Assembly (NCBI GenBank): GCA_963664115.2
Contig: CAXWPJ010000010.1
Span: 96,001-160,000 of the forward strand
Reading direction: 5' to 3'
Origin: Terriglobia bacterium
Lineage (GTDB): Bacteria; Acidobacteriota; Terriglobia; 20CM-2-55-15
DNA length: 64,000 nt
How positions within the stretch are numbered: the first letter of the stretch is position 1; every line of letters begins with the position of its first letter. The position numbers and the translations under genes were made by a program. The notes below the pieces were generated by a model. That model saw only the letters and a program-made list of their open reading frames with translations. It was not told the DNA's origin and did no database searches. This document shows, piece by piece, positions 933 through 19,088 of the stretch.

Positions 933-2083
933 GTGGTCCCCGTTAAACAGACTGTAACTTATCAAGATTTCGCCGGCCGCGCTGGACTTTAGCAAGGATG
1001 TCGGAAGCCGTTGCAGTCCAGATGAAGGGTTTCGGGTCTTCATTGTGACGAGCGAGGTAGTCCTCCACGGCCTGGATCAACTCGGGGACCGAGCGGAAAA
1101 CGCCACGCCGGAGTCGTTGCTCGGACAGATCCCGGAAAAAGCGCTCGACCATGTTGAGCCACGACGCACTGGTTGGCGTGAAGTGCACATGAAAACGCTT
1201 GTTACGCTTGAGCCAGTTGACGACTTTCTGATGTTTGTGAGTCGCATAGTTGTCGCAAATAATGTGGATCTCCTTATCTTTCGGCATGGCGCGTTTGATC
1301 TGATTCAGAAACCGGATCCATTCCTGATGGCGATGCTTTGGCATGCAGGTTCCGATGACCGAACCGTCCAGGATGTTGAGCGCGGCGAAAAGCGTGGTTG
1401 TCCCGTTACGTTTGTAATCGTGGGTCATGGTGCCACACCGCCCCTTCTTCAGAGGTAACCCGGGTTGCGTGCGGTCCAGGGCCTGCATCTGGCTCTTCTC
1501 ATCGCAGGACAAGACAATGGCGTTTTCCGGTGGGCTCAGATACAGACCGACCACATCCTCCAGCTTTTCGGCGAATCGTTTGTCGTTGGATAGTTTGAAG
1601 GTTCGTGACAGATGAGGCTTCAGTCCATGGACCCGCCAGATTTTCCCGACCGTGGACTCGCTCACGCCAACGGCCTTCGCCATCGAGGCCCGACTCCAGT
1701 GCGTCGCGTTCGGGGGCTTCTCTTCCAGTGTCTTCTTGACGATCCGGGCTCGCTTCCGGCGACTGATCGTGGGAATCCGTCCGCTTCGCGGCGCATCCTT
1801 TTCGATCCCAGCCAAGCCCTGTTCCACAAAACGATTGCGCCAGCGGCCCGCTTTCTGGCGCGTGATCTCCAAGCGGGCGGCGATCTCATAATTGTTCCGA
1901 CCTTCAGCGGCCAGTAATACAATTCGGGATCGTTCCGCCAACCGGACCGATGTACTCCGGCTTCGACTCAGTCGCTCCAACTCCATCCGCTGCTTGTCAT
2001 CCAATTCAATGGTCGGTGCTTTCCTCATTCTCTATTGGACGTTGGAAAGCTATTTTAGTTACATTACTTCGAGCGGGGTACAC
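933..2083 (-). mobile_element. IS630-family insertion sequence
   Basis: Imperfect 27-bp terminal inverted repeats (GTGGTCCCCGTT..TGTAACT vs GTGTACCCCGCT..TGTAACT, 18/27). Flanked by duplicated TA (931-932, 2084-2085) in CTAG context. Confidence 0.9.
943..2028 (-). CDS. IS630-family DDE transposase
   Basis: N-terminal HTH; SCDEKSQ, HDYKRNGT, CDNYATHK and SASWLNMVERFF motifs. Confidence 0.95.
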   Translation of the reverse strand: MRKAPTIELDDKQRMELERLSRSRSTSVRLAERSRIVLLAAEGRNNYEIAARLEITRQKAGRWRNRFVEQGLAGIEKDAPRSGRIPTISRRKRARIVKKTLEEKPPNATHWSRASMAKAVGVSESTVGKIWRVHGLKPHLSRTFKLSNDKRFAEKLEDVVGLYLSPPENAIVLSCDEKSQMQALDRTQPGLPLKKGRCGTMTHDYKRNGTTTLFAALNILDGSVIGTCMPKHRHQEWIRFLNQIKRAMPKDKEIHIICDNYATHKHQKVVNWLKRNKRFHVHFTPTSASWLNMVERFFRDLSEQRLRRGVFRSVPELIQAVEDYLARHNEDPKPFIWTATASDILAKVQRGRRNLDKLQSV

Positions 2084-3763: not shown

Positions 3764-6700
3764 TCAATCACCTGCCGGGGCTGCGTCGGCGCCTTGGTCC
3801 AAACCTTCATCCCACACTTCCTCTTCCTGACGCCCGTATCTCAGATACAGGGTCGGCATGACGATCATGTTAAGAAACGTAGACGTCAGCATTCCACCCA
3901 GAATCACAGCGGCCATCGGCTGCTGAATTTCCTGCCCTGGAATCCCGACTCCCAGGGCCAACGGTATCAGGCCGACTCCTGTCACGAGAGCGGTCATCAG
4001 GATGGGGCTCAAACGTTCCATCGATCCCTGAATGACAGCCTGACGGAAGGCCACGCCTTCCTCGATCAAATGACGATAGTGGGTGACCAGCATGATGCCG
4101 TTGCGCGTGGCAATGCCGAAAAGCGTAATGAAACCGACCAGCGAAGCCACCGAAAGCGTGCCGCCCGAAAGAAACACGATGAGAACGCCACCGATGAGGG
4201 CTAAGGGCAGGTTCACCATCACCAGCAACGAGGCACGCAGGGACTTCAACGCGATAAACAGGAGAAGAAATATTCCGCCGATCGCAACCAACGACAGCCA
4301 GAATATTCTCAGCGACGCCTGCTCCTGCGCCTCAAACTGGCCGCCATATTGAACGAAGTAACCTTCGGGAAGGGCGACTTCCCTGCCCACCGCTGCCCGA
4401 ACGTCATCGATCACACTGCCCAGATCCCTTCCTGAAACATTGGACTGCACTATGATCCGGCGCTGTCCGTTTTCGCGGTTGATCGTGTTCGGCCCCTGGT
4501 CGGAACGTACGTCGGCTACTTGTGCGATGGGGACCTTCGCGCCCATCGGGGTCTCAATAAGCGTGTTCCGGATTGAATCGAGCGATTCACGGGCTTCGTC
4601 TTCGAGACGGACAACGAGATCGTAGCTTCGCTGCTGCTCCAGGACCTGACCCACCACCCGACCGTTAAAGGCAGTTTCCACTAACTCAGCCAGGTCACCC
4701 GCCGACAGACCAACAGCCGCCGCATTGGCTCGGTCGATATTCACCTGAACCTGTGGCACGCCCACCTGAGGTTCGACCAGCAAGTCGACTACTCCGGGAA
4801 TATTTTCTATCGAAGCCCGGATCTCTTCGGCCTTGTTTCTCAATATTGGCAGGTCGGGCCCGAACAGTTTGATCGCGATCTGCGCCCGGGTGCCCGACAA
4901 CAGGTGGTCGATGCGATGCGATATCGGTTGACCTACCTCCGACGCTGCGCCGGGAATGGGAGCCAGGCTCGCCCGTACCTCGTCCATGATTTCGAACTGC
5001 GACCGCTCGGACGGCCGGATGACGACCTCCAGCTCGCTCGCATTAACTCCCGCGGCATGTTCGTCCTGTTCGGCACGTCCGGTTCGCCTCGTGGTCGAGA
5101 CAACCTCGGGAATTTCGTGGAGCGCACCCTCGACAACGTTACCGATACGGTTCGACTCCTCTAAAGATGTTCCCGGAGGCAGCGTCACATTAATATTCAC
5201 GGCTCCTTCGTTGAAGGGCGGTAGAAATTCACGACCCGTCAGCGGAAGCAAGGCAATGGATGTCACGAGTAATAGAACAGATACAGCAATGACTTCGAAC
5301 GGACGGGCCAGGGCCCACCCCAGTACCTTGCTGTATCGCCGTTTGCTAAACGCCACCAATCGCGAATCACCCGTGCTCTGCCCTCGGGCGAACCGTCCGA
5401 GCATCAAGTAGCACAGGACTGGCGTAACCGTAAGCGCCACGAGTAGCGAGGCCGCTATCGAAAAGATGTATGCGAACGCCAGCGGTGCAAACATACGTCC
5501 TTCAAATCCGGCGAGCGAAAACAAGGGCAGGAAGACGAGAATGATGATCAGCGTCGCATAGTAAATGGAATTCCGAATTTCACTGGACGCTTTAAATACG
5601 ACAGTCGAAATCTTCTCCGGATTTCCCATTGCGACGTTTTGTTTGAGCCGTCGGAATACATTTTCTACATCCACAATCGCGTCGTCCACGAGTTCCCCGA
5701 TGGCGATCGCCAACCCACCCAGCGTCATCGTGTTGATGCTTATTCCGAAATAGCTCATCGCGCAGATGGCGGTCACCAAAGACAGCGGAATGGCGGTCAA
5801 ACTGATGAATGTCGTCCTGAAGTTCCAAAGAAAGAGGAAGAGCACGACGCTCACCAGCACGCCGCCTTCAATCAGCGCGCGACGGACGTTGCCGACCGCA
5901 AGCTCGATGAAGTTGGCCTGCTGAAAAGCCTCAGCGTCGATAGATACGTCGTCGGGCAGCGTCAGCTCGAGGGATTCGAGTATCGTTTCGATCTCCTCGG
6001 TCAGCTCAAGAGTGTTGGCATTCGGCTGCTTCTGGATCGTGACGACGATCGCAGGCTCCATATTGAAGCTTCCGTCGCCCCTCTTGATCGCAGCGCCCAG
6101 GCGGACTTCGGCAACATGTTCGATCAGCACAGGTCGGCCGTCGCGGATTGTGATGACCGACTGAGCCAGATCTTCAATCTGACTCACGCGGCCGCGCCCG
6201 CGAATCAGGAATTCTTCGTTGGTTCGTTCCATAAAACCGCCAGGGCTGACGGCGTTCGCATCCTCGACCGCGTGACTGACGTCTTCGAGAGACAGGTCGT
6301 AATCAACGAGCCTCGTGGGATCAACGATCACCTGGTATTGCTTCAGGTCGCCTCCGATCACAATGACCTGGGACACACCCGTAATCGCGAGCAGGCGTGG
6401 CCTTACGATCCAATCTGCTAGTGAACGAAGATCCATGTTGGATGTTTCGCCCGTCGAGATCATGGATACGAGCATGATCTCGCCCATCGTCGAAGAGATT
6501 GGACCCAACACCGGCGACTCGATTCCGTCAGGCAGTTCCACCTGCTGGAGCTTCTCCGTTACGAGCTGACGCGCCCGGTATATGTCGGTTCCGAGCTCGA
6601 ACTCGGCGAAGATCAACGAGAGTCCTACCGCCGAATTCGAACGGACACGAAATACTCCCGACGTACCATTAAGGACGGATTCGAGCGGCACCGTAACAAG

Positions 6701-6889
6701 CGCTTCCACCTCTTCCGGTGCCAGGCCGTGAGCCTCCGTAAGGACAGTTACCGTAGGGACCGTCAGATCAGGAAAAACATCAATTGGGGTCCGGGCCGCG
6801 ACGATACCGCCGTAAATAAGGAGGCCGACCGCTCCGACGACAACCAGCAGGCGATTGTCCAAAGACCATTGAATAATTCGATCTAGCAT
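3764..6889 (-). CDS. CusA/CzcA-family heavy-metal efflux RND permease
   Basis: 1041 aa; PIDVFPDL, GGLAIAIGELVDDAIVDVEN, GFITLFGIATRNG and ERLSPILMTAL motifs. Confidence 0.95.
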   Translation of the reverse strand: MLDRIIQWSLDNRLLVVVGAVGLLIYGGIVAARTPIDVFPDLTVPTVTVLTEAHGLAPEEVEALVTVPLESVLNGTSGVFRVRSNSAVGLSLIFAEFELGTDIYRARQLVTEKLQQVELPDGIESPVLGPISSTMGEIMLVSMISTGETSNMDLRSLADWIVRPRLLAITGVSQVIVIGGDLKQYQVIVDPTRLVDYDLSLEDVSHAVEDANAVSPGGFMERTNEEFLIRGRGRVSQIEDLAQSVITIRDGRPVLIEHVAEVRLGAAIKRGDGSFNMEPAIVVTIQKQPNANTLELTEEIETILESLELTLPDDVSIDAEAFQQANFIELAVGNVRRALIEGGVLVSVVLFLFLWNFRTTFISLTAIPLSLVTAICAMSYFGISINTMTLGGLAIAIGELVDDAIVDVENVFRRLKQNVAMGNPEKISTVVFKASSEIRNSIYYATLIIILVFLPLFSLAGFEGRMFAPLAFAYIFSIAASLLVALTVTPVLCYLMLGRFARGQSTGDSRLVAFSKRRYSKVLGWALARPFEVIAVSVLLLVTSIALLPLTGREFLPPFNEGAVNINVTLPPGTSLEESNRIGNVVEGALHEIPEVVSTTRRTGRAEQDEHAAGVNASELEVVIRPSERSQFEIMDEVRASLAPIPGAASEVGQPISHRIDHLLSGTRAQIAIKLFGPDLPILRNKAEEIRASIENIPGVVDLLVEPQVGVPQVQVNIDRANAAAVGLSAGDLAELVETAFNGRVVGQVLEQQRSYDLVVRLEDEARESLDSIRNTLIETPMGAKVPIAQVADVRSDQGPNTINRENGQRRIIVQSNVSGRDLGSVIDDVRAAVGREVALPEGYFVQYGGQFEAQEQASLRIFWLSLVAIGGIFLLLFIALKSLRASLLVMVNLPLALIGGVLIVFLSGGTLSVASLVGFITLFGIATRNGIMLVTHYRHLIEEGVAFRQAVIQGSMERLSPILMTALVTGVGLIPLALGVGIPGQEIQQPMAAVILGGMLTSTFLNMIVMPTLYLRYGRQEEEVWDEGLDQGADAAPAGD

Positions 6890-6892
6890 TCA

Positions 6893-7279
6893 ATTAGCGT
6901 CGGGCCCACCGGCCCCGATTTCCCCTCCATTAAGAGTGCACTTACGATCCGCCATTGCCTCTGTTGTGGGAGCTCGAACGCCGGCCGGTCCCCCCACGCC
7001 CGCATTAGCGTCGGGCCCACCGGCCCCGATTTCCCCTCCATTAAGAGTGCACTTACGATCCGCCATTGCCTCTGTTGTGGGAGCTCGAACGCCGGCCGGT
7101 CGAACGCCGGCCGGTCCCCCCACGCCCGCATTAGCGTCGGGCCCACCGGCCCCGATTTCCCCTCCATTAAGAGTGCACTTACGATCCGCCATTGCCTCTG
7201 TTGTGGGAGCTCGAACGCCGGCCGGTCCCCCCACGCCCGCATTAGCGTCGGGCCCACCGGCCCCGATTTCCCCTCCATT
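6893..7279. repeat. Tandem array of a 111-bp unit (3 full copies plus a 39-bp partial)
   Basis: Units start at 6893, 7004, 7130 and 7241 (ATTAGCGTCGGGCCCACCGGCCCCGATTTCCCCTCCATT...). Unit 2 has an internal 15-bp duplication (CGAACGCCGGCCGGT); the copies are otherwise identical. Confidence 0.97.
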
Positions 7280-7291
7280 GACTCTGACGTC

Positions 7292-8566
7292 CTATACCTC
7301 ATGGGTATGCGCGCCGGGATCCGCCGGTTGTAGCTCCTGTAGCTTCAACTGGTAGGCTCCTTGCGTCACCACACGCTCGCCCGGTTCCACGCCGGTCAAT
7401 ATCGACACTTCATCGCCGTAGCGCTCTCCCAGAACGACGTTACGGCGTTCGAACTCTTCGCCCGAGAGCAGGACATAAACAATGTCGCGGCCCTCGTGTT
7501 CCATAACGGCTTCAGCCGCAATCGAAACGACTCCCCGCGGAGGTCCGGTAGCCAATCGAATGTTGGCCTGCATACCAATGCGAAGCCGGCCATCCCGATT
7601 CGGTATCGAAAATATCACCGTCGCCGTTCGGGTCTCCTCATCAATGCGCGCACTCACATCCACGAGTTCACCTACGAACTCGACGCCCGGGTAAGCGATC
7701 GTCTCGAAGATCACCTCACCGGTATCGAGCACAGCAGCGAGATCCTTTTCAAAGATCGGGGCTTCGACCCAGACCACGTCGAGGTTCACGATGTCGAGCA
7801 CTGGCTCTCCGGGTTGAACCAGCTCACCCACCTCTTTAAAAATCTGGTTAACGCGGCCTGCGATCGGAGCGGAAAGCACCTGGCGCGGTGCCGTTGTTCG
7901 CATGGCGTTATCCAGATTTGGGGCCTCGGCGAGTGCGGCTAACTGTTCGGAGTAGGAGGCAACGACGGACTCGGCTGCATCGTATTCGGTTTCCGCAGCC
8001 TCTACTGCCTGAAGTGCCATCAATTCTTCTTCGTGCAAACGTCTCGCCCGGGTCCATTCCCGCTCGGCTTGACGCAGGCGTATCTGGGCCTCGGCCCTGG
8101 ACTGCTCCAGACGACGGCGTTCCGACTCGGTGCGGATGGCCTCCAGGCGAAGCAGCGCGGCCTGAGCGGCATCCGCTACCTGGGGCATTTGCTCTATGGT
8201 CAGAACGTCCTCGCCCGAGCGCACCCGTTGTCCGAGAACCGGCAAATTCGCGTCCTTGACCAACCCCGTCACGGGAGAGGAAATGATCGCCGTGTAATTG
8301 TCTGCGGGTACAACGCGGCCTACCGCGCGAACCTGAGGCGACAGTTCCCGACGCTGGGCCTCGGCAAGCTTCATACCGATGAGCCACTGCTGCTCCATCA
8401 AAAAGGTCACGGTACCGTTCGACGCCGGCTCGCCGGCCTCTTCCTCCGCAACGAGTTCCACAGCCTGATTCCGGTAGAGCGTCACCAGCAGCGCCAGAAT
8501 TGCGACTCCCATCAAGGCAATCCATATGGGCCCGGACCGGCGTCGTATCGCATTGGATTCCGTCAT
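7292..8566 (-). CDS. Efflux RND transporter periplasmic adaptor (CzcB/CusB-like MFP)
   Basis: ATG at 8566 after GGAGGA; N-terminal TM helix, FLMEQQW, coiled coil, LSAPIAG, GERVVTQGAYQLKL and a His-containing tail (AHTHEV). Confidence 0.92.
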   Translation of the reverse strand: MTESNAIRRRSGPIWIALMGVAILALLVTLYRNQAVELVAEEEAGEPASNGTVTFLMEQQWLIGMKLAEAQRRELSPQVRAVGRVVPADNYTAIISSPVTGLVKDANLPVLGQRVRSGEDVLTIEQMPQVADAAQAALLRLEAIRTESERRRLEQSRAEAQIRLRQAEREWTRARRLHEEELMALQAVEAAETEYDAAESVVASYSEQLAALAEAPNLDNAMRTTAPRQVLSAPIAGRVNQIFKEVGELVQPGEPVLDIVNLDVVWVEAPIFEKDLAAVLDTGEVIFETIAYPGVEFVGELVDVSARIDEETRTATVIFSIPNRDGRLRIGMQANIRLATGPPRGVVSIAAEAVMEHEGRDIVYVLLSGEEFERRNVVLGERYGDEVSILTGVEPGERVVTQGAYQLKLQELQPADPGAHTHEV

Positions 8567-8595
8567 GTCGTCTATTCCTCCAGTTCTCCTATTTT

Positions 8596-9042
8596 TCACT
8601 CCACCTCAAATCCGCTAAGAGTCATCAGCTCGTCGATCCCGTCGTTCTGAACCCGAAACTCAATGTCGTAAATCCCGGGGTTTGGCGCCGTCAACTCGGC
8701 AACGTAGATACCCGTAACCCGTCCAACCAACGCCGTCGTCCCCGCAGCCTCGTTGGCGCTGCCTTGTGACCGTAGGGACAACCGGACCTGCGCCGCCTGC
8801 ACAGGAGAACCGTCAAGGAGATCGGTCAGATGGATCAAGAACGCGCTCGTCTCACCAGATTTCAAGGGATCGTATTCGAAAAAATTCTCGATCCGGTCGG
8901 TGAACGCGGTGCGAGACAGCACCTCGGTTTCAACTTCCTCGACGACGGCAACGGGCGTTGTACACCCCGCTAGAAACACAGCACACAAAACGAGCATTGC
9001 AGCATGGGCATGGGCAGCGAGGCACAGGTCTCTAGTTTTCAC
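8596..9042 (-). CDS. Lipoprotein with YtkA/FixH-like Ig fold, efflux-operon associated
   Basis: Lipobox FLAGC; FLIHLTDL..GSPV and GIYVAEL..P.PGIY pattern. Confidence 0.6.
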   Translation of the reverse strand: MKTRDLCLAAHAHAAMLVLCAVFLAGCTTPVAVVEEVETEVLSRTAFTDRIENFFEYDPLKSGETSAFLIHLTDLLDGSPVQAAQVRLSLRSQGSANEAAGTTALVGRVTGIYVAELTAPNPGIYDIEFRVQNDGIDELMTLSGFEVE

Positions 9043-9135
9043 AGTCGTCCTTTTTACGTCGGTCTGATGAGAGAGTTCATGCGTCCAGAGTGCACTGACG
9101 CACGTCAGCGCGGACGCGCCACGGCTAAGGGAAGT

Positions 9136-9543
9136 CTAAACGGGGGGAGGTCTTGAGGACAAATTCGAACCGGGCGGGTCCCGAGCCCGGTCCGGCCGGC
9201 GCGCACCCTGGCGTGCGCTCGTCTGGAACTGCGGCGTTACATCCGCGTGCGACTGAGTGGACTCTGCAACAGGAAACGGCTTGCCAGCGAGCGAAAGAAA
9301 GAGGTCGACGTGATCGCCCTTATGAGATGCAACGTCAATGAAGGGATCATCGGTTTCTCGAGCGCCTGCTCCAGCACCCTGACCAGCGAGAGAAAAATGC
9401 GAGTGCACCTGGAGCCCGTGTGCACTTCCAGCACCGTGATGCCCTTCTTCGGAATGCACATGCGAAAAGGGTGCGTAGGCAAGCGTCGATAACATGAGAA
9501 CGAGCGCTGCCAAAGAGGTGATGCAGGAAGTCACGGAGTTCAC
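9136..9543 (-). CDS. His-rich exported leader protein with Pro-rich C-terminus (DUF2946/RAPP-like arrest-peptide candidate)
   Basis: Hydrophobic N-terminus, HVHSEEGHHGAGSAHGLQVHSH, and the end RARDPPGSNLSSRPPPV*. The start is uncertain: GTG 9543 lies just after a sigma70 promoter, while the ORF caller used 9615. Confidence 0.6.
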   Translation of the reverse strand: MNSVTSCITSLAALVLMLSTLAYAPFSHVHSEEGHHGAGSAHGLQVHSHFSLAGQGAGAGARETDDPFIDVASHKGDHVDLFLSLAGKPFPVAESTQSHADVTPQFQTSARQGARRPDRARDPPGSNLSSRPPPV

Positions 9544-9552
9544 AGTGTGTTC

Positions 9553-9582
9553 ATTATCCGTCTGACCGTAAAGCAGTGTCAA
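9553..9582 (-). promoter_or_regulatory. sigma70-like promoter for the leader/efflux operon
   Basis: TTGACA (9582-9577)-N18-GATAAT (9558-9553). Confidence 0.55.
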
Positions 9583-9981
9583 TAAACCAAACTGAGCCAC
9601 CACCCGAATTAACACTCAGTCTGGCACTATAGGTCAGCGTGCCAACCTGTCCTACCGGACGAAATTACAATCAGTTGCCAACGGTTCGCGTGAATTAACC
9701 CGAACCTGTGTCCCCAATTTCTTACCCATCCGCAGGGCGCCGGAAAGTGATGCATCCAGATGTCAACCCCCGACACGATGATTTTTCAGAACTTGACCTC
9801 TCAAAACTACGGCACAAGCACGCGCACTTTTCGTTTCTCAAACCACTTCCCTCTGGTGATGGTCTCGTGTGACGGGATCTCGTCTGTCGTGTCTCCTTGA
9901 TCGAGACAGAATTTCGCCAGACAATGAACCCTATTCTTTAACAAAGCGCGCTTGTCGCGACTACGCTTCGGGAGACCCAAC

Positions 9982-10437
9982 ATGGAGAAGACGATTTCGC
10001 AGTTACTTGGGGACTTTGACCATGGCAAACTTACTCGGCGGCAACTGATTCAGGCGCTCACCATGCTCGCCCTTGGTGGCACATCAGCAGTTGCCGCACC
10101 TCTACCCTCTCAGAATATTGACCACGTGTCGGTGCTTGTCTCAGACCTTGCTCGTTCGATTGACTTCTACCAGAACGTGTTTGGGCTCTCTATCGCGAAT
10201 CGAGACGACGCCAATCAAATCGTGCGATTGAGTGCGGAAGGTAAGATGATCGTTTCGCTGCGGCAAGAGGCTCCTCCGGGACGGATCGACCACTTCGCAA
10301 TTAACGTCGCAGGAACTGATCGAGAATCAGTCACCCGAGACCTGCGTGATGCAAACCTGACACCGCAGGAAAATCTCGAATTTGGTTTTCACGTTACCGA
10401 CCCTGATGGTGCAGTAGTGCAGATTTCGGGTGTCTGA
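9982..10437 (+). CDS. VOC/glyoxalase family protein with Tat-like signal
   Basis: LTRRQLI twin-arginine motif; IDHVSVLVSDLARSIDFY, IDHFAI and TDPDGAVVQI motifs. Confidence 0.85.
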   Translation: MEKTISQLLGDFDHGKLTRRQLIQALTMLALGGTSAVAAPLPSQNIDHVSVLVSDLARSIDFYQNVFGLSIANRDDANQIVRLSAEGKMIVSLRQEAPPGRIDHFAINVAGTDRESVTRDLRDANLTPQENLEFGFHVTDPDGAVVQISGV

Positions 10438-16134: not shown

Positions 16135-17601
16135 TAGTACTACTGTGTTACAAACGAAGCGGCCCACAGAGCGGACAGCACGGGAGCTGCTGGATGAGGA
16201 ATCGTGCGATGCGAACGCGAAGTGAGGCGATCGAGCACGGATTATGTCGCTCGGGCCGGATCCGGGGCTCCGCGGGGTTTGAAGTGTCTGGGGAGTTGGG
16301 GGACGGATAGTCCAACATGCGTGACAAATGCAGAGGGGGAAAAACGGTTCCGCTCAGCGACCAGGAACCCATAAGCTGCGATGCATAAAGCGCCATGGTG
16401 GTGAAATCCACGCCAGCCGCGACCTTCGTAATGGCCCAGTCCGAGTTCCTGCTTGAGTTCCTGATAGTCGCGTTCGATGATCCAGCGATGCTTGGCCCGA
16501 TAGACCAGATTTGAAAGAGAGGTATTGGTCTCGAGACTGGAGAGCCAGTATTGAACCGGTTCGGATTCGGTCTTGGGCCATTCGATCAACAACCATTCTT
16601 CCGGATGGGGCTCGTGGCGCTCATGATCGCGATGAGCCGTGCGAATCCGGATTGCGGCGAAGCGGGAGCGCAACGTGTCGGCCGTGCCTTCGCGCCAGGA
16701 CACGTTCTTCCATTTTTGTCGAGGCAAGGAGAGAGCCAGTTGTTTGACCGAAACAGGACGATGCTTCTTGTGACGCCTCAACAGCGTCGGCGGGCGTCCC
16801 TGGCCGGTCCACGACTTCTTGGGCAGGGGTTGCCGACCGGGCTCCCAGACCGAGGTCGAGGATTGGATGCCAACCACATAAGGCAGCCCCAGTGCGGTAA
16901 TCGTCGCGCGAAACTTACTGTCGTTGCCGTAGGCGGCATCGGCCAACACGGGAGCCGTCCCCACACCGTCCGCAATCGCCTGTCGGATTTGGTCCAGAGC
17001 AATCGCAATCTTGGTCTGGAATCCAACAGCATCCGGGACACCGGTCTTCTTGCGGCGTTCGGCATCGTTCGCCCAAAGCTTCGGCAGGTACAGCCGCCAT
17101 GCCACGGGCAGACTCGATTTCGCCGTCGCTAACTGACCGCCACCCGGCAGTTCTCCTGTTTGCCGACCTGTCCACAGTATTGCCGGGCCACGCCTACCGA
17201 GTGGGTCCCCTTCTTCACGAATCCGGTGTCGTCGACAATCCACGATTCAATCGGACCGTGCGCTTCCATCCCCGGCAACGTCGACTCCCGGACTTGTCGC
17301 AATATGGCCGCATCCTCCCAGGGGGCATCGGCCACCAGGTGATGCAACGACTGATGCATTCGGCGCACATTATCCGGAGCCAATCGCGCCGCCATCGGCT
17401 CCACGCTCTTGCGCTTGATTGGCAGCAGCAATCCCTTGCAGTACCACTTCAGCGGTTCATGACGGTCGGCGTGTCCGGCGGCCGACGCCAGGCGTTCCAT
17501 ATAGGCCGCAAAACGTTCTTCCTGAGTGCCTGGCGCCTTCGTTTTGGCGCTCATGTGCCAATGCTAACACAAGCTCGTCATTTTGTAACACAGTAGTACT
17601 A
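16135..17601 (-). mobile_element. IS701-family insertion sequence
   Basis: Perfect 20-bp inverted repeat TAGTACTACTGTGTTACAAA at 16135-16154 and 17582-17601, enclosing the transposase. Confidence 0.9.
16242..17554 (-). pseudogene. IS701-family transposase, frameshifted near 17131
   Basis: RKSVEPMA and DDTGFVKKGTHSVGVARQYCG in one frame; WRLYLP, LADAAYG and RWIIERDYQELKQELGLGHYEGR in another. Confidence 0.88.
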
Positions 17602-17602
17602 G

Positions 17603-19087
17603 CAGCCCGTGGTGAAAGTCAGTTTCATAGTATTTAGAAGAAGGACCGGATGCGACCATATCGCGAGGAACATTGAGGTAAGGAGACCGCGCTATGGGAA
17701 TGGGACGAAGAAAGGACCGACAGGAGACGTTGTGGGTGGCGACGGCGGAGTTGCCGCGAACCGCGGGCCACGTGTTCTATGAACGGGTGAACCGAATCCT
17801 GAATGAGACGAATTTCGACCGGTTCGTCGAGGATGCCTGCGAGAAGTTCTACGCCGCAGTGATGGGTCGGCCGAGCCTGGCACCGGGCAGGTATTTTCGG
17901 ATGCTGCTGGTCGGCTACTTTGAAGGGATCGATTCGGAGCGGGGAATCGCATGGCGGTGTGCCGATTCTCTGAGCTTGCGGGAATTTCTGGGATTGGGAC
18001 TGAGCGACGCGGTGGCGGATCATTCGACGGTGTCGCGAACCCGACGGCTGATCGATCTGGAAACGCATGGAAAGGTTTTTTCGTGGATGTTGGGCGTGTT
18101 GGCCAGTGAGGGCCTGATCGATGGGAAGACGGTGGGCGTGGATGCATCGACGCTGGAGGCGAATGCGGCGATGCGAACGATCGTGAGACGGGATACCGGA
18201 GAAGCCTACAACGAGTTCCTGACACGGCTGGCGCAGGCGTCGGGCATTGAGACTCCGACCCAGGCCGAGCGGGCCCGGCTGGACCGAAAGCGCACGAAGA
18301 AGGGATCGAACAAAGAGTGGGAACATCCCCACGACCCGGACGCGCGAATCACGAAGATGAAGGACGGCCGGACTGATCTGGCGCACAAGGTCGCACATGC
18401 CGCCGACATGAAGACCGGGGCCATCCTGGCAGTCACCGTGCAGGGCACCGACCAGGGCGACACGACGACGATCAAAGAGACGATGATCGAAGCGGCTCGT
18501 CAGATGGAGACACTGGCGGCCGATCCTGAATCGAAGTTGCGGGATGATTGCCTCTCCGAAATCGTGGCCGATAAGGGATATCACAGTAACGATACGCTGA
18601 CCGGTTTCAGGGACCTCAATATGCGCAGCTACATCTCGGAGCCGGACCGGGGCCGGCGCAACTGGAAAGGCAAGCCCGACGAACAAAAGGCCGTCTATGC
18701 GAACCGGCGGCGGATCCGGGGTGAGCGGGGCAAGCGGTTACTCCGACAGCGGGGACTGATGTTGGAACAACCGTTTGCGCACACGCTGGAAACTGGCGCA
18801 ATGCGTCGGGTTCACCTGCGACATCGCGACAACATTCTCAAGCGTGTTCTGATTCAGTACGCTGCGTTGAATCTGAGCCTGATTCTTCGGAACAATTTCG
18901 GGAATGGCACACCGCGAGGCCTTCAGGGCCAGCATGTCACTGCCTTGTTCACCCTGATACTGCTCTGGAGCCACTATGCAACGCTCTCTTTCGATCGTCA
19001 CCGCTCCCGAAACGATTTCGCAGCCGATCCTTCCCGGAACACTCCTGTGAATTCCGGCTCAAAATATGCCACTTCTGCCACGGGCTG
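17603..19087 (+). mobile_element. IS1182-like insertion sequence
   Basis: Inverted repeats CAGCCCGTGGTGAAAGT (17603-17619) and ACTTCTGCCACGGGCTG (19071-19087), 14/17 match. Confidence 0.85.
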
Positions 19088-19088
19088 A
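17694..19088 (+). CDS. DDE transposase (DUF772 N-terminus, IS1182/IS5-like)
   Basis: GRPSLAP, EGIDSERGI, DHSTVSR, VDASTLEANA, DPDARI and VADKGYHS motifs. Confidence 0.92.
   Translation: MGMGRRKDRQETLWVATAELPRTAGHVFYERVNRILNETNFDRFVEDACEKFYAAVMGRPSLAPGRYFRMLLVGYFEGIDSERGIAWRCADSLSLREFLGLGLSDAVADHSTVSRTRRLIDLETHGKVFSWMLGVLASEGLIDGKTVGVDASTLEANAAMRTIVRRDTGEAYNEFLTRLAQASGIETPTQAERARLDRKRTKKGSNKEWEHPHDPDARITKMKDGRTDLAHKVAHAADMKTGAILAVTVQGTDQGDTTTIKETMIEAARQMETLAADPESKLRDDCLSEIVADKGYHSNDTLTGFRDLNMRSYISEPDRGRRNWKGKPDEQKAVYANRRRIRGERGKRLLRQRGLMLEQPFAHTLETGAMRRVHLRHRDNILKRVLIQYAALNLSLILRNNFGNGTPRGLQGQHVTALFTLILLWSHYATLSFDRHRSRNDFAADPSRNTPVNSGSKYATSATG

Follow-up and report, generated by a model that had tools for sequence, protein, structure and literature searches.

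The efflux operon described here raises the question of how a heavy-metal pump can be controlled when no regulator gene lies beside it. The window, by which we mean the whole 64,000-nucleotide stretch of contig CAXWPJ010000010.1 that was analysed, encodes a small leader ORF followed, after a gap of 93 nt, by genes for a lipoprotein, a membrane-fusion protein (MFP) and an RND pump (Table 1). Its neighbours are a glyoxalase-like gene in divergent and a cytochrome c'-like gene in convergent orientation, which agrees with the preliminary description of this DNA in that no transcriptional regulator adjoins it. On the basis of sequence comparisons we propose, with a probability of roughly 60%, that the leader is a conserved, cysteine-free, cis-acting ribosome-arrest sensor of metal that serves the efflux operon.

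Table 1. Features of the leader region and of the genes that follow it, in window positions.
Feature	Position	Strand	Details or basis
Leader ORF, His-only, candidate ribosome-arrest metal sensor	9136..9543	-	GTG 9543 to TAG 9136, 135 aa
Hydrophobic N-terminal helix, export signal or membrane anchor	9475..9537	-	residues 3-23; KD19 max 1.96
First HxH pair (H28, H30)	9454..9462	-	invariant in alignment
Second HxH pair (H47, H49)	9397..9405	-	invariant or near-invariant
Upstream Pro motif RDPP, family consensus HDPP	9172..9183	-	conservation
Terminal RPPP, predicted arrest site; family RAPP/RSPP	9142..9153	-	conservation and PMC12992588
Sigma70-type promoter TTGACA-18-GATAAT	9553..9582	-	-35 at 9582-9577, -10 at 9558-9553; score 11/12
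Intergenic hairpin, no U-tract, not over RBS	9081..9117	-	kept in 7 close relatives
C-rich, G-poor tract over stop codon, possible Rho loading site	9121..9165	-	17 C, 6 G in 45 nt
Weak 6-nt anti-SD candidate	9161-9156	-	within C-rich tract
Shine-Dalgarno of lipoprotein gene	9046..9052	-	upstream of 9042 start
Exported lipoprotein, conserved in related operons	8596..9042	-	weak YtkA-like match below cut-off
RND membrane-fusion protein (MFP)	7292..8599	-	domain match
Heavy-metal RND pump, HME5/NieA-like motifs	3764..6889	-	TIGR00914 866.9 bits, cut-off 701.45

The pump had initially been labelled CzcA. It is a heavy-metal RND protein above the TIGR00914 cut-off, but its motifs (HAAGVN and HRIDH) are nearer to the HME5/NieA type than to CzcA proper, and by its sequence it resembles putative nickel exporters. 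Its best solved relative is ZneA, followed by CusA, and the positions that we take to match the three CusA methionines are occupied by Asn, Ala and His; read in this way, the pump is without the copper-type Met triad. A pump with 52% identity to it lies in a copper gene cluster. The motifs of HME5-type NieA are HAEGVH and HRLDH, and in the available text of PMC7060636 nickel export is proposed rather than shown, and the HME5 class includes a copper exporter as well. The metal, as judged from the pump motifs only, is most likely Ni or Co and possibly Zn, and ligands made up of His only would fit Ni, Co or Zn.

An outer-membrane factor (OMF) is absent from the operon of the window (8596-7292), as it is from the relatives G002, G004 and G021, and the relatives G005 and G006 have the order lipoprotein-OMF-MFP-RND; the genome holds other outer-membrane efflux protein (OEP) genes outside the operon. 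Between the MFP and RND genes lie 400 bp that are filled by tandem GC-rich repeats of 111/126 bp (6893-7227), and contigs C1, C2 and C6 of the same genome carry diverged copies of them. Two relatives have almost no gap at this place and a third has a larger one; the repeats look like a small repeat element undergoing expansion within the operon. Three transposase-like ORFs were recognised by eye elsewhere in the window (943-2028, 16242-17554 and 17694-19088), one of them apparently split over two frames.

Translation confirmed the leader ORF as first described, namely about 135 aa starting at GTG 9543, with ten His, an export-like hydrophobic N-terminus (the helix of residues 3-23) and the quoted C-terminal end. 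The His residues are found at positions 28, 30, 35, 36, 42, 47, 49, 74, 78 and 99, the single Cys sits inside the N-terminal helix, a CxxC motif is absent, and the C-terminus reads RDPP-x6-RPPPV. A near-invariant Pro25 follows the helix; with a near-invariant Pro after Ala in this part of the chain, signal cleavage may be blocked. In an AlphaFold model of the leader (pLDDT 61.6, pTM 0.30) this helix is the sole confident part and the poorly conserved middle has a pLDDT of about 50, so that the chain beyond the helix is predicted to be unfolded. A scan of the leader protein against Pfam and NCBIfam gave no family match. An atlas comparison started from a homologue gave unnamed clusters and a lead to DUF6769 (133 shared features), which was rejected as the family since Pfam confirmed it for none of the members.

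A direct search retrieved ten homologues, and leaders were found in 12 of 41 related genomes, the own one included, and with a wider profile in 27 of 35 genomes of its family. Clustering at 50% identity gave 94 groups of homologues. Broader samples yielded 29 of 301 genomes class-wide with a narrower profile and 7 of 401 phylum-wide with just 10 candidates scored per genome, so that at this scale either the distribution appears patchy or the search was insensitive; a related-loci search of GTDB with the single protein found nothing. In all 12 loci first compared the lipoprotein gene comes next. Across 17 sequences of 25-81% identity H28, H30, H47, H49, G76, R119, P123-P124, R131 and P133-P134 are invariant, and the remaining residues of the His cluster vary. 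The seven-His cluster proposed at first is thus upheld in being His-based and free of CxxC, but the invariant His number four, arranged as two HxH pairs.

The C-terminus is conserved as well. Among the 94 cluster representatives 92 end in RxPP (x being A in 57, S in 30, P in 3 and G in 2, with S and G not present in the seed alignment), and all 92 have two or more HxH, with CxxC or CxxxC in one. In most representatives RxPP is preceded, at a distance of 10-11 residues, by a second motif, H/R-[D,G,S,A]-PP. Both Pro motifs singled out early on as stall-like, RDPP and RPPP, are invariant as Pro motifs in the 17 homologues, but the family norm at the end is RAPP and RPPP is rare: the 21 loci of the window's own lipoprotein-first family have RAPP (17), RSPP (3) and RPPP (1), the last being that of the window. 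The check on homologues ahead of pump operons came out partly in favour of the first proposal, with the hydrophobic N-terminus, His pairs and terminal RxPP conserved. The family tail can be written as H/R-D-P-P-x6-7-R-[A/S/P/G]-P-P, and a GTDB scan with this motif alone gave 105 matches; the following figures refer to the 80 matches listed. Titles that we take to be those of Acidobacteriota lineages are carried by 76, and in 75 HxH comes after a hydrophobic N-terminus, CxxC being absent from all 75; three of the other five are apparently due to chance and two are truncated. An outer-membrane efflux protein gene follows in 68 of the 80, and after it, among the matches listed, comes an MFP (30) or a lipoprotein of the window type (28). 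From the first HxH to the C-terminus the 75 listed members measure 95-112 aa, enough to span tunnel and membrane. By these sequence features the leader belongs to a larger, mainly Acidobacteriota family with two HxH pairs and no CxxC.

Several further ORFs were encountered in these searches. One typical family member (L067) comes from a contig whose title names an actinobacterium (Rugosimonospora), which may reflect mis-binning or transfer. A small CutF-like ORF of the Cys type, with CCxxC and Pro-Pro near its end, lies on the minus strand of contig C6 of the own genome at about 168.4-168.8 kb, ahead of the OMF that belongs to the second heavy-metal RND there; about 9 nt separate the ATG of this ORF from a preceding -10-like hexamer. 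Contig C10 holds a His-rich ORF (ending near 536814, plus strand) with a hydrophobic N-terminus and an RGPP end, directly followed by a gene that by eye is TonB-dependent receptor-like. On the Magnetospirillum plasmid NZ_LN997849.1 the TolC of a related pump is preceded by a small unannotated ORF (L182, 1652-2044) that has a hydrophobic N-terminus, contains His/Cys and carries a double Pro-Pro tail.

The promoter reported just ahead of the leader was recovered, and the same pair of -35 and -10 boxes is present in 12 of the 12 loci first compared. Two promoter-like sites occur within 2 kb, where shuffled sequences give 0.7. The start codon lies just 9 nt past the -10 box, so the leader mRNA is predicted to be nearly leaderless, a feature that goes beyond the preliminary description. 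For the wider family the start of each leader was picked solely by its distance to the first HxH, which is 22-27 residues in 98 of 98 loci and 23 in 78. In 69 of 98 loci a -10-like hexamer has its end 5-11 nt ahead of this start; the same is true of the next gene in 2 of 98 and of shifted positions in 2-8 of 98. A Shine-Dalgarno (SD)-like duplex precedes 18 of 98 leaders versus 88 of 98 next genes. The leader mRNA thus looks leaderless, or nearly so, across the family; for three Acidobacteria genomes a published estimate puts leaderless genes at 13% in the available part of PMC3160421. In four metatranscriptomes short contig pieces, mostly 90-99% alike, cover the leader and pump genes; none of these pieces, which as contigs cannot show strand, start or level, bridges the gap between leader and lipoprotein gene.

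In the 12 loci the boxes are conserved, but neither the region upstream of the -35 box nor the promoter spacer is, which gives no sign of an operator. This bears on the possibility that the leader is a spacer, in which a stall sets a fixed basal level or protects the mRNA and a distant transcription factor confers metal control. A related Salinibacter pump does adjoin a two-component system, and our scan for regulators was confined to the genes beside the operon. Conservation of nothing but the promoter boxes speaks against such a factor, however, and the invariant HxH pairs would be left unexplained, so that we hold this possibility to be quite remote.

Mutagenesis of ApdA/ApdP, as far as given in the available text of PMC12992588, found G at the second position of RxPP to be fully and S, D and P to be partly permissive for arrest. 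With A, G, S, P and D permissive, both motifs of the window (RDPP and RPPP) are within the permissive set, RPPP giving only partial arrest in ApdA (same source). A RAPP motif alone is insufficient, since most natural RAPP-like proteins tested in vitro gave no arrest (PMC10987492, available part). The nucleotide sequence around the motif was considered in a set of 99 loci, obtained from 105 candidates after removal of four without a callable downstream start, one duplicate and one with a doubtful start. They comprise 78 loci in which TolC comes first and 21 in which the lipoprotein comes first, the latter being the window's family, and as the loci are related the counts are not independent. The Arg of RxPP is encoded by AGA in 34 of 99 loci (background 5%), a Pro codon is CCT in 53 of 99 (background 13%; 30 of 57 after thinning to representatives), and CCG occurs at the A-site Pro in 6 of 99 (background 43%). 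The AGA and CCG bias may be a decoding-level effect. Tuning of the synonymous codons at the arrest site for an anti-SD was not supported (8/78 and 1/21 at p<=0.1), and CCT at the P-site Pro showed no association with GAGG in the SD (p 0.54).

How a stall might be passed on to the pump genes appears to differ between the two groups. Where TolC comes first, a stretch of 17 nt at the stop codon forms a duplex with the locus's own downstream ribosome-binding site (RBS) of median -12.3 kcal/mol, compared to -8.1 for shuffled sequences and -8.6 for the RBS of other loci; the pairing is better than shuffles in 44 of 78 (p<=0.1) and better than with other loci's RBS in 28 of 78. Placing the footprint of a stalled ribosome lowers the cost of opening the RBS by more than 1.5 kcal/mol in 39-46 of 72 (46 of 72 for a footprint to +20), versus just 3-9 of 71 for footprints 33-90 nt upstream. 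Since the stop region pairs with its own RBS (44/78), stalling would switch the pump on. In the lipoprotein-first loci, in contrast, such pairing exceeds shuffles in 0 of 21 and other loci's RBS in 1 of 21, and the footprint opens the RBS by more than 1.5 kcal/mol in 1-2 of 21 (0.0-0.9 kcal/mol in the window).

Within the gap of the window, the hairpin pointed out earlier does exist and is kept in seven close relatives, where its two helices have 95% and 88% of cells paired and three pairs are changed two-sidedly, although it had been written from the plus, non-coding strand. Read on the mRNA, its end is separated from the SD (9052-9046) by 28 nt; at this distance and without a U-tract it counts neither as a stem over the RBS nor as an intrinsic terminator, and no intrinsic terminator was found at it on the coding strand. 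A role as RBS mask was ruled out by position and folding. A 161-nt region here folds no better than shuffles (z = -0.71), and an Rfam search of 6800-10200 (E<=1) gave no match and hence no known riboswitch there. In the same seven relatives the leader's last Leu-Ser-Ser codons form a 6-bp consensus helix with the SD (93% paired, no covariation). The excess of C over G at the window's leader stop is in the top 0.9% of 2746 long-ORF stops, although it is partly forced by the Pro codons; C-excess after the stop is seen in 12 of 21 loci of the window's family, 79 of 99 overall and 45 of 57 thinned representatives, and the genome has a rho gene. As a Rho site of the whole family the post-stop tract was rejected, since an anti-SD explains the TolC-first members better.

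Among known systems the leader resembles in design CutF of Rhodobacter capsulatus (cutFOG), likewise a small first gene with metal-ligand residues, a C-terminal Pro motif and a short gap to a detoxification gene, and with an export signal to which the hydrophobic helix of the leader may correspond (PMC9973294; bioRxiv 10.1101/2025.02.05.636593, available parts of both). By the filters of PMC9973294 for CutF-like proteins it has fewer than 150 aa (135), PP in the last 15 residues (123-124, 132-134) and a next gene on the same strand within 1000 nt (93). In the available text of that study a stall of CutF-like proteins is predicted to switch expression on, as we propose for the leader, OEP/RND genes are their commonest neighbours, and His-only clusters (14 and 17) ahead of HupE/UreJ genes were already predicted. 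The leader differs from CutF in having no Cys motif, two fixed HxH pairs, a tandem HDPP and RAPP tail and a leaderless start, and an SD-masking stem was not found in the window; unlike the His-only clusters, it precedes RND pumps. The word 'Acidobacteria' is absent from the main text as available, and our literature search found no description of the family, the tandem tail or the leaderless start, although the supplementary lists of PMC9973294 may include it.

With CruR, a DUF2946 protein of Bordetella pertussis, the family shares an operon-heading uORF, a terminal RAPP and a C-rich 3' end (PMC9426467, with arrest in PMC12992588, available parts). The suggested HMM check against DUF2946 shows that the leader is not a member: it has no match to PF11162, nothing in the genome exceeds the cut-off, and 6 of 82 family members match weakly (best E 4e-4). 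CxxC, in contrast to CruR, is missing in the window and present in 0 of 75 and 1 of 92 relatives. Judged by analogy, the leader likely works like CutF/CruR, and arrest-based regulation in cis is, on the sequence features described, highly probable. Since the leader would control export and CruR controls import, the metal should act with opposite sign. ApdA/ApdP share with it a terminal R-x-P-P with permissive x and, as predicted for the leader, an N-terminal localisation signal (PMC12992588, PMC10987492, available parts), but the leader has invariant His pairs and is followed by lipoprotein or OEP, MFP and RND genes and not by sec/yidC. These comparisons also allow for an arrest leader with opposite or no metal logic, in which a default stall is released by metal or by pulling of the translocon, so that the operon would be expressed at low metal or serve as a readout of export capacity. 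Arrest of CruR is relieved by metal (PMC9426467) and Apd-type RAPP peptides monitor secretion (PMC12992588, PMC10987492), each according to the available text, and sequence does not reveal in which direction metal would act. A downstream efflux pump, with neither sec/yidC nor an importer, argues against it, and four invariant His would be superfluous in a pure secretion monitor; we consider it improbable. Sensing of metal by the leader is probable, and stalling is likely to correspond to the on state.

A different kind of function is suggested by CzcI and by nieI-C-cep-nieBA of Cupriavidus, where a small gene also heads a CBA pump with an extra exported protein (PMC10127602, PMC7060636, available parts); NieI was likened to the leader by gene layout and pump motifs. 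The leader product could accordingly be exported as an accessory protein, bind metal and damp the pump post-translationally, its Pro tail being structural or a degradation tag. CzcI is first in czcICBA and described as quenching CzcCBA, and czcI2 is leaderless too (PMC10127602, available text), and nieI-C-cep-nieBA has a comparable layout (PMC7060636, available text). However, the Pro tail is invariant in the leader family, its R-x-P-P being the best-kept part and varying within the arrest-permissive set, whereas CzcI has no C-terminal Pro motif in the available text of PMC9973294, and no CzcI-named Pfam or NCBIfam match was found among 82 family members; the two are set apart by family matches and description. 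The poorly conserved middle, predicted to be unfolded (pLDDT about 50), and the codon and RNA signals at the stop, which point to a function at the mRNA level, likewise make an accessory protein an unlikely explanation.

Conservation of the leader, its position, the anatomy of its motifs and the near-leaderless promoter geometry are directly supported; export, metal binding, stalling and the sign of the switch we infer. In the arrest mechanism that we favour, constitutive, near-leaderless transcription of the leader would be followed by co-translational targeting through the N-terminal helix, the nascent chain entering the Sec translocon. With the ribosome at Pro133 the HxH pairs would be 84-105 residues out, which exceeds the estimated lengths of tunnel and membrane together, and on the periplasmic side the two pairs could bind a divalent metal (Ni or Co, possibly Zn). 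The metal-bound chain would prolong the stall at the terminal RxPP, as proposed for CutF, and the stall would turn on the downstream efflux genes. In TolC-first operons the stalled ribosome would free the RBS from the anti-SD at the stop codon, following CutF logic. As this pairing is absent in the window's clade, the output there would use either the weak anti-SD in the last codons or a C-rich tract shielded from Rho, following CruR logic; in both cases stalling would mean on.

Metal sensing by ribosome stalling has, in the published demonstrations that we found, involved only copper and Cys ligands, His-only versions having been predicted. The leader family offers a compact test set: the four His are invariant and stand at a fixed distance from the arrest site, RAPP, RSPP and RPPP occur as natural variants, a further Pro motif lies upstream, and the intergenic region comes in two architectures. 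A cultured carrier exists in Edaphobacter modestus DSM 18101 (locus L070). It is tempting, though doubtful at this stage, to go further and regard a phylum-wide family of leaderless arrest peptides, with His as their only ligands and two arrest sites in tandem, as the sole regulators of Ni/Co RND pumps in many Acidobacteriota and as the first non-copper stall sensors, one lineage having been rewired from RBS unmasking to Rho attenuation with the sensor kept. If the proposed sensor holds true, nascent-chain sensing would extend to Ni, Co or Zn, and the control of regulator-less metal pumps in an abundant and mostly uncultured phylum would be explained.
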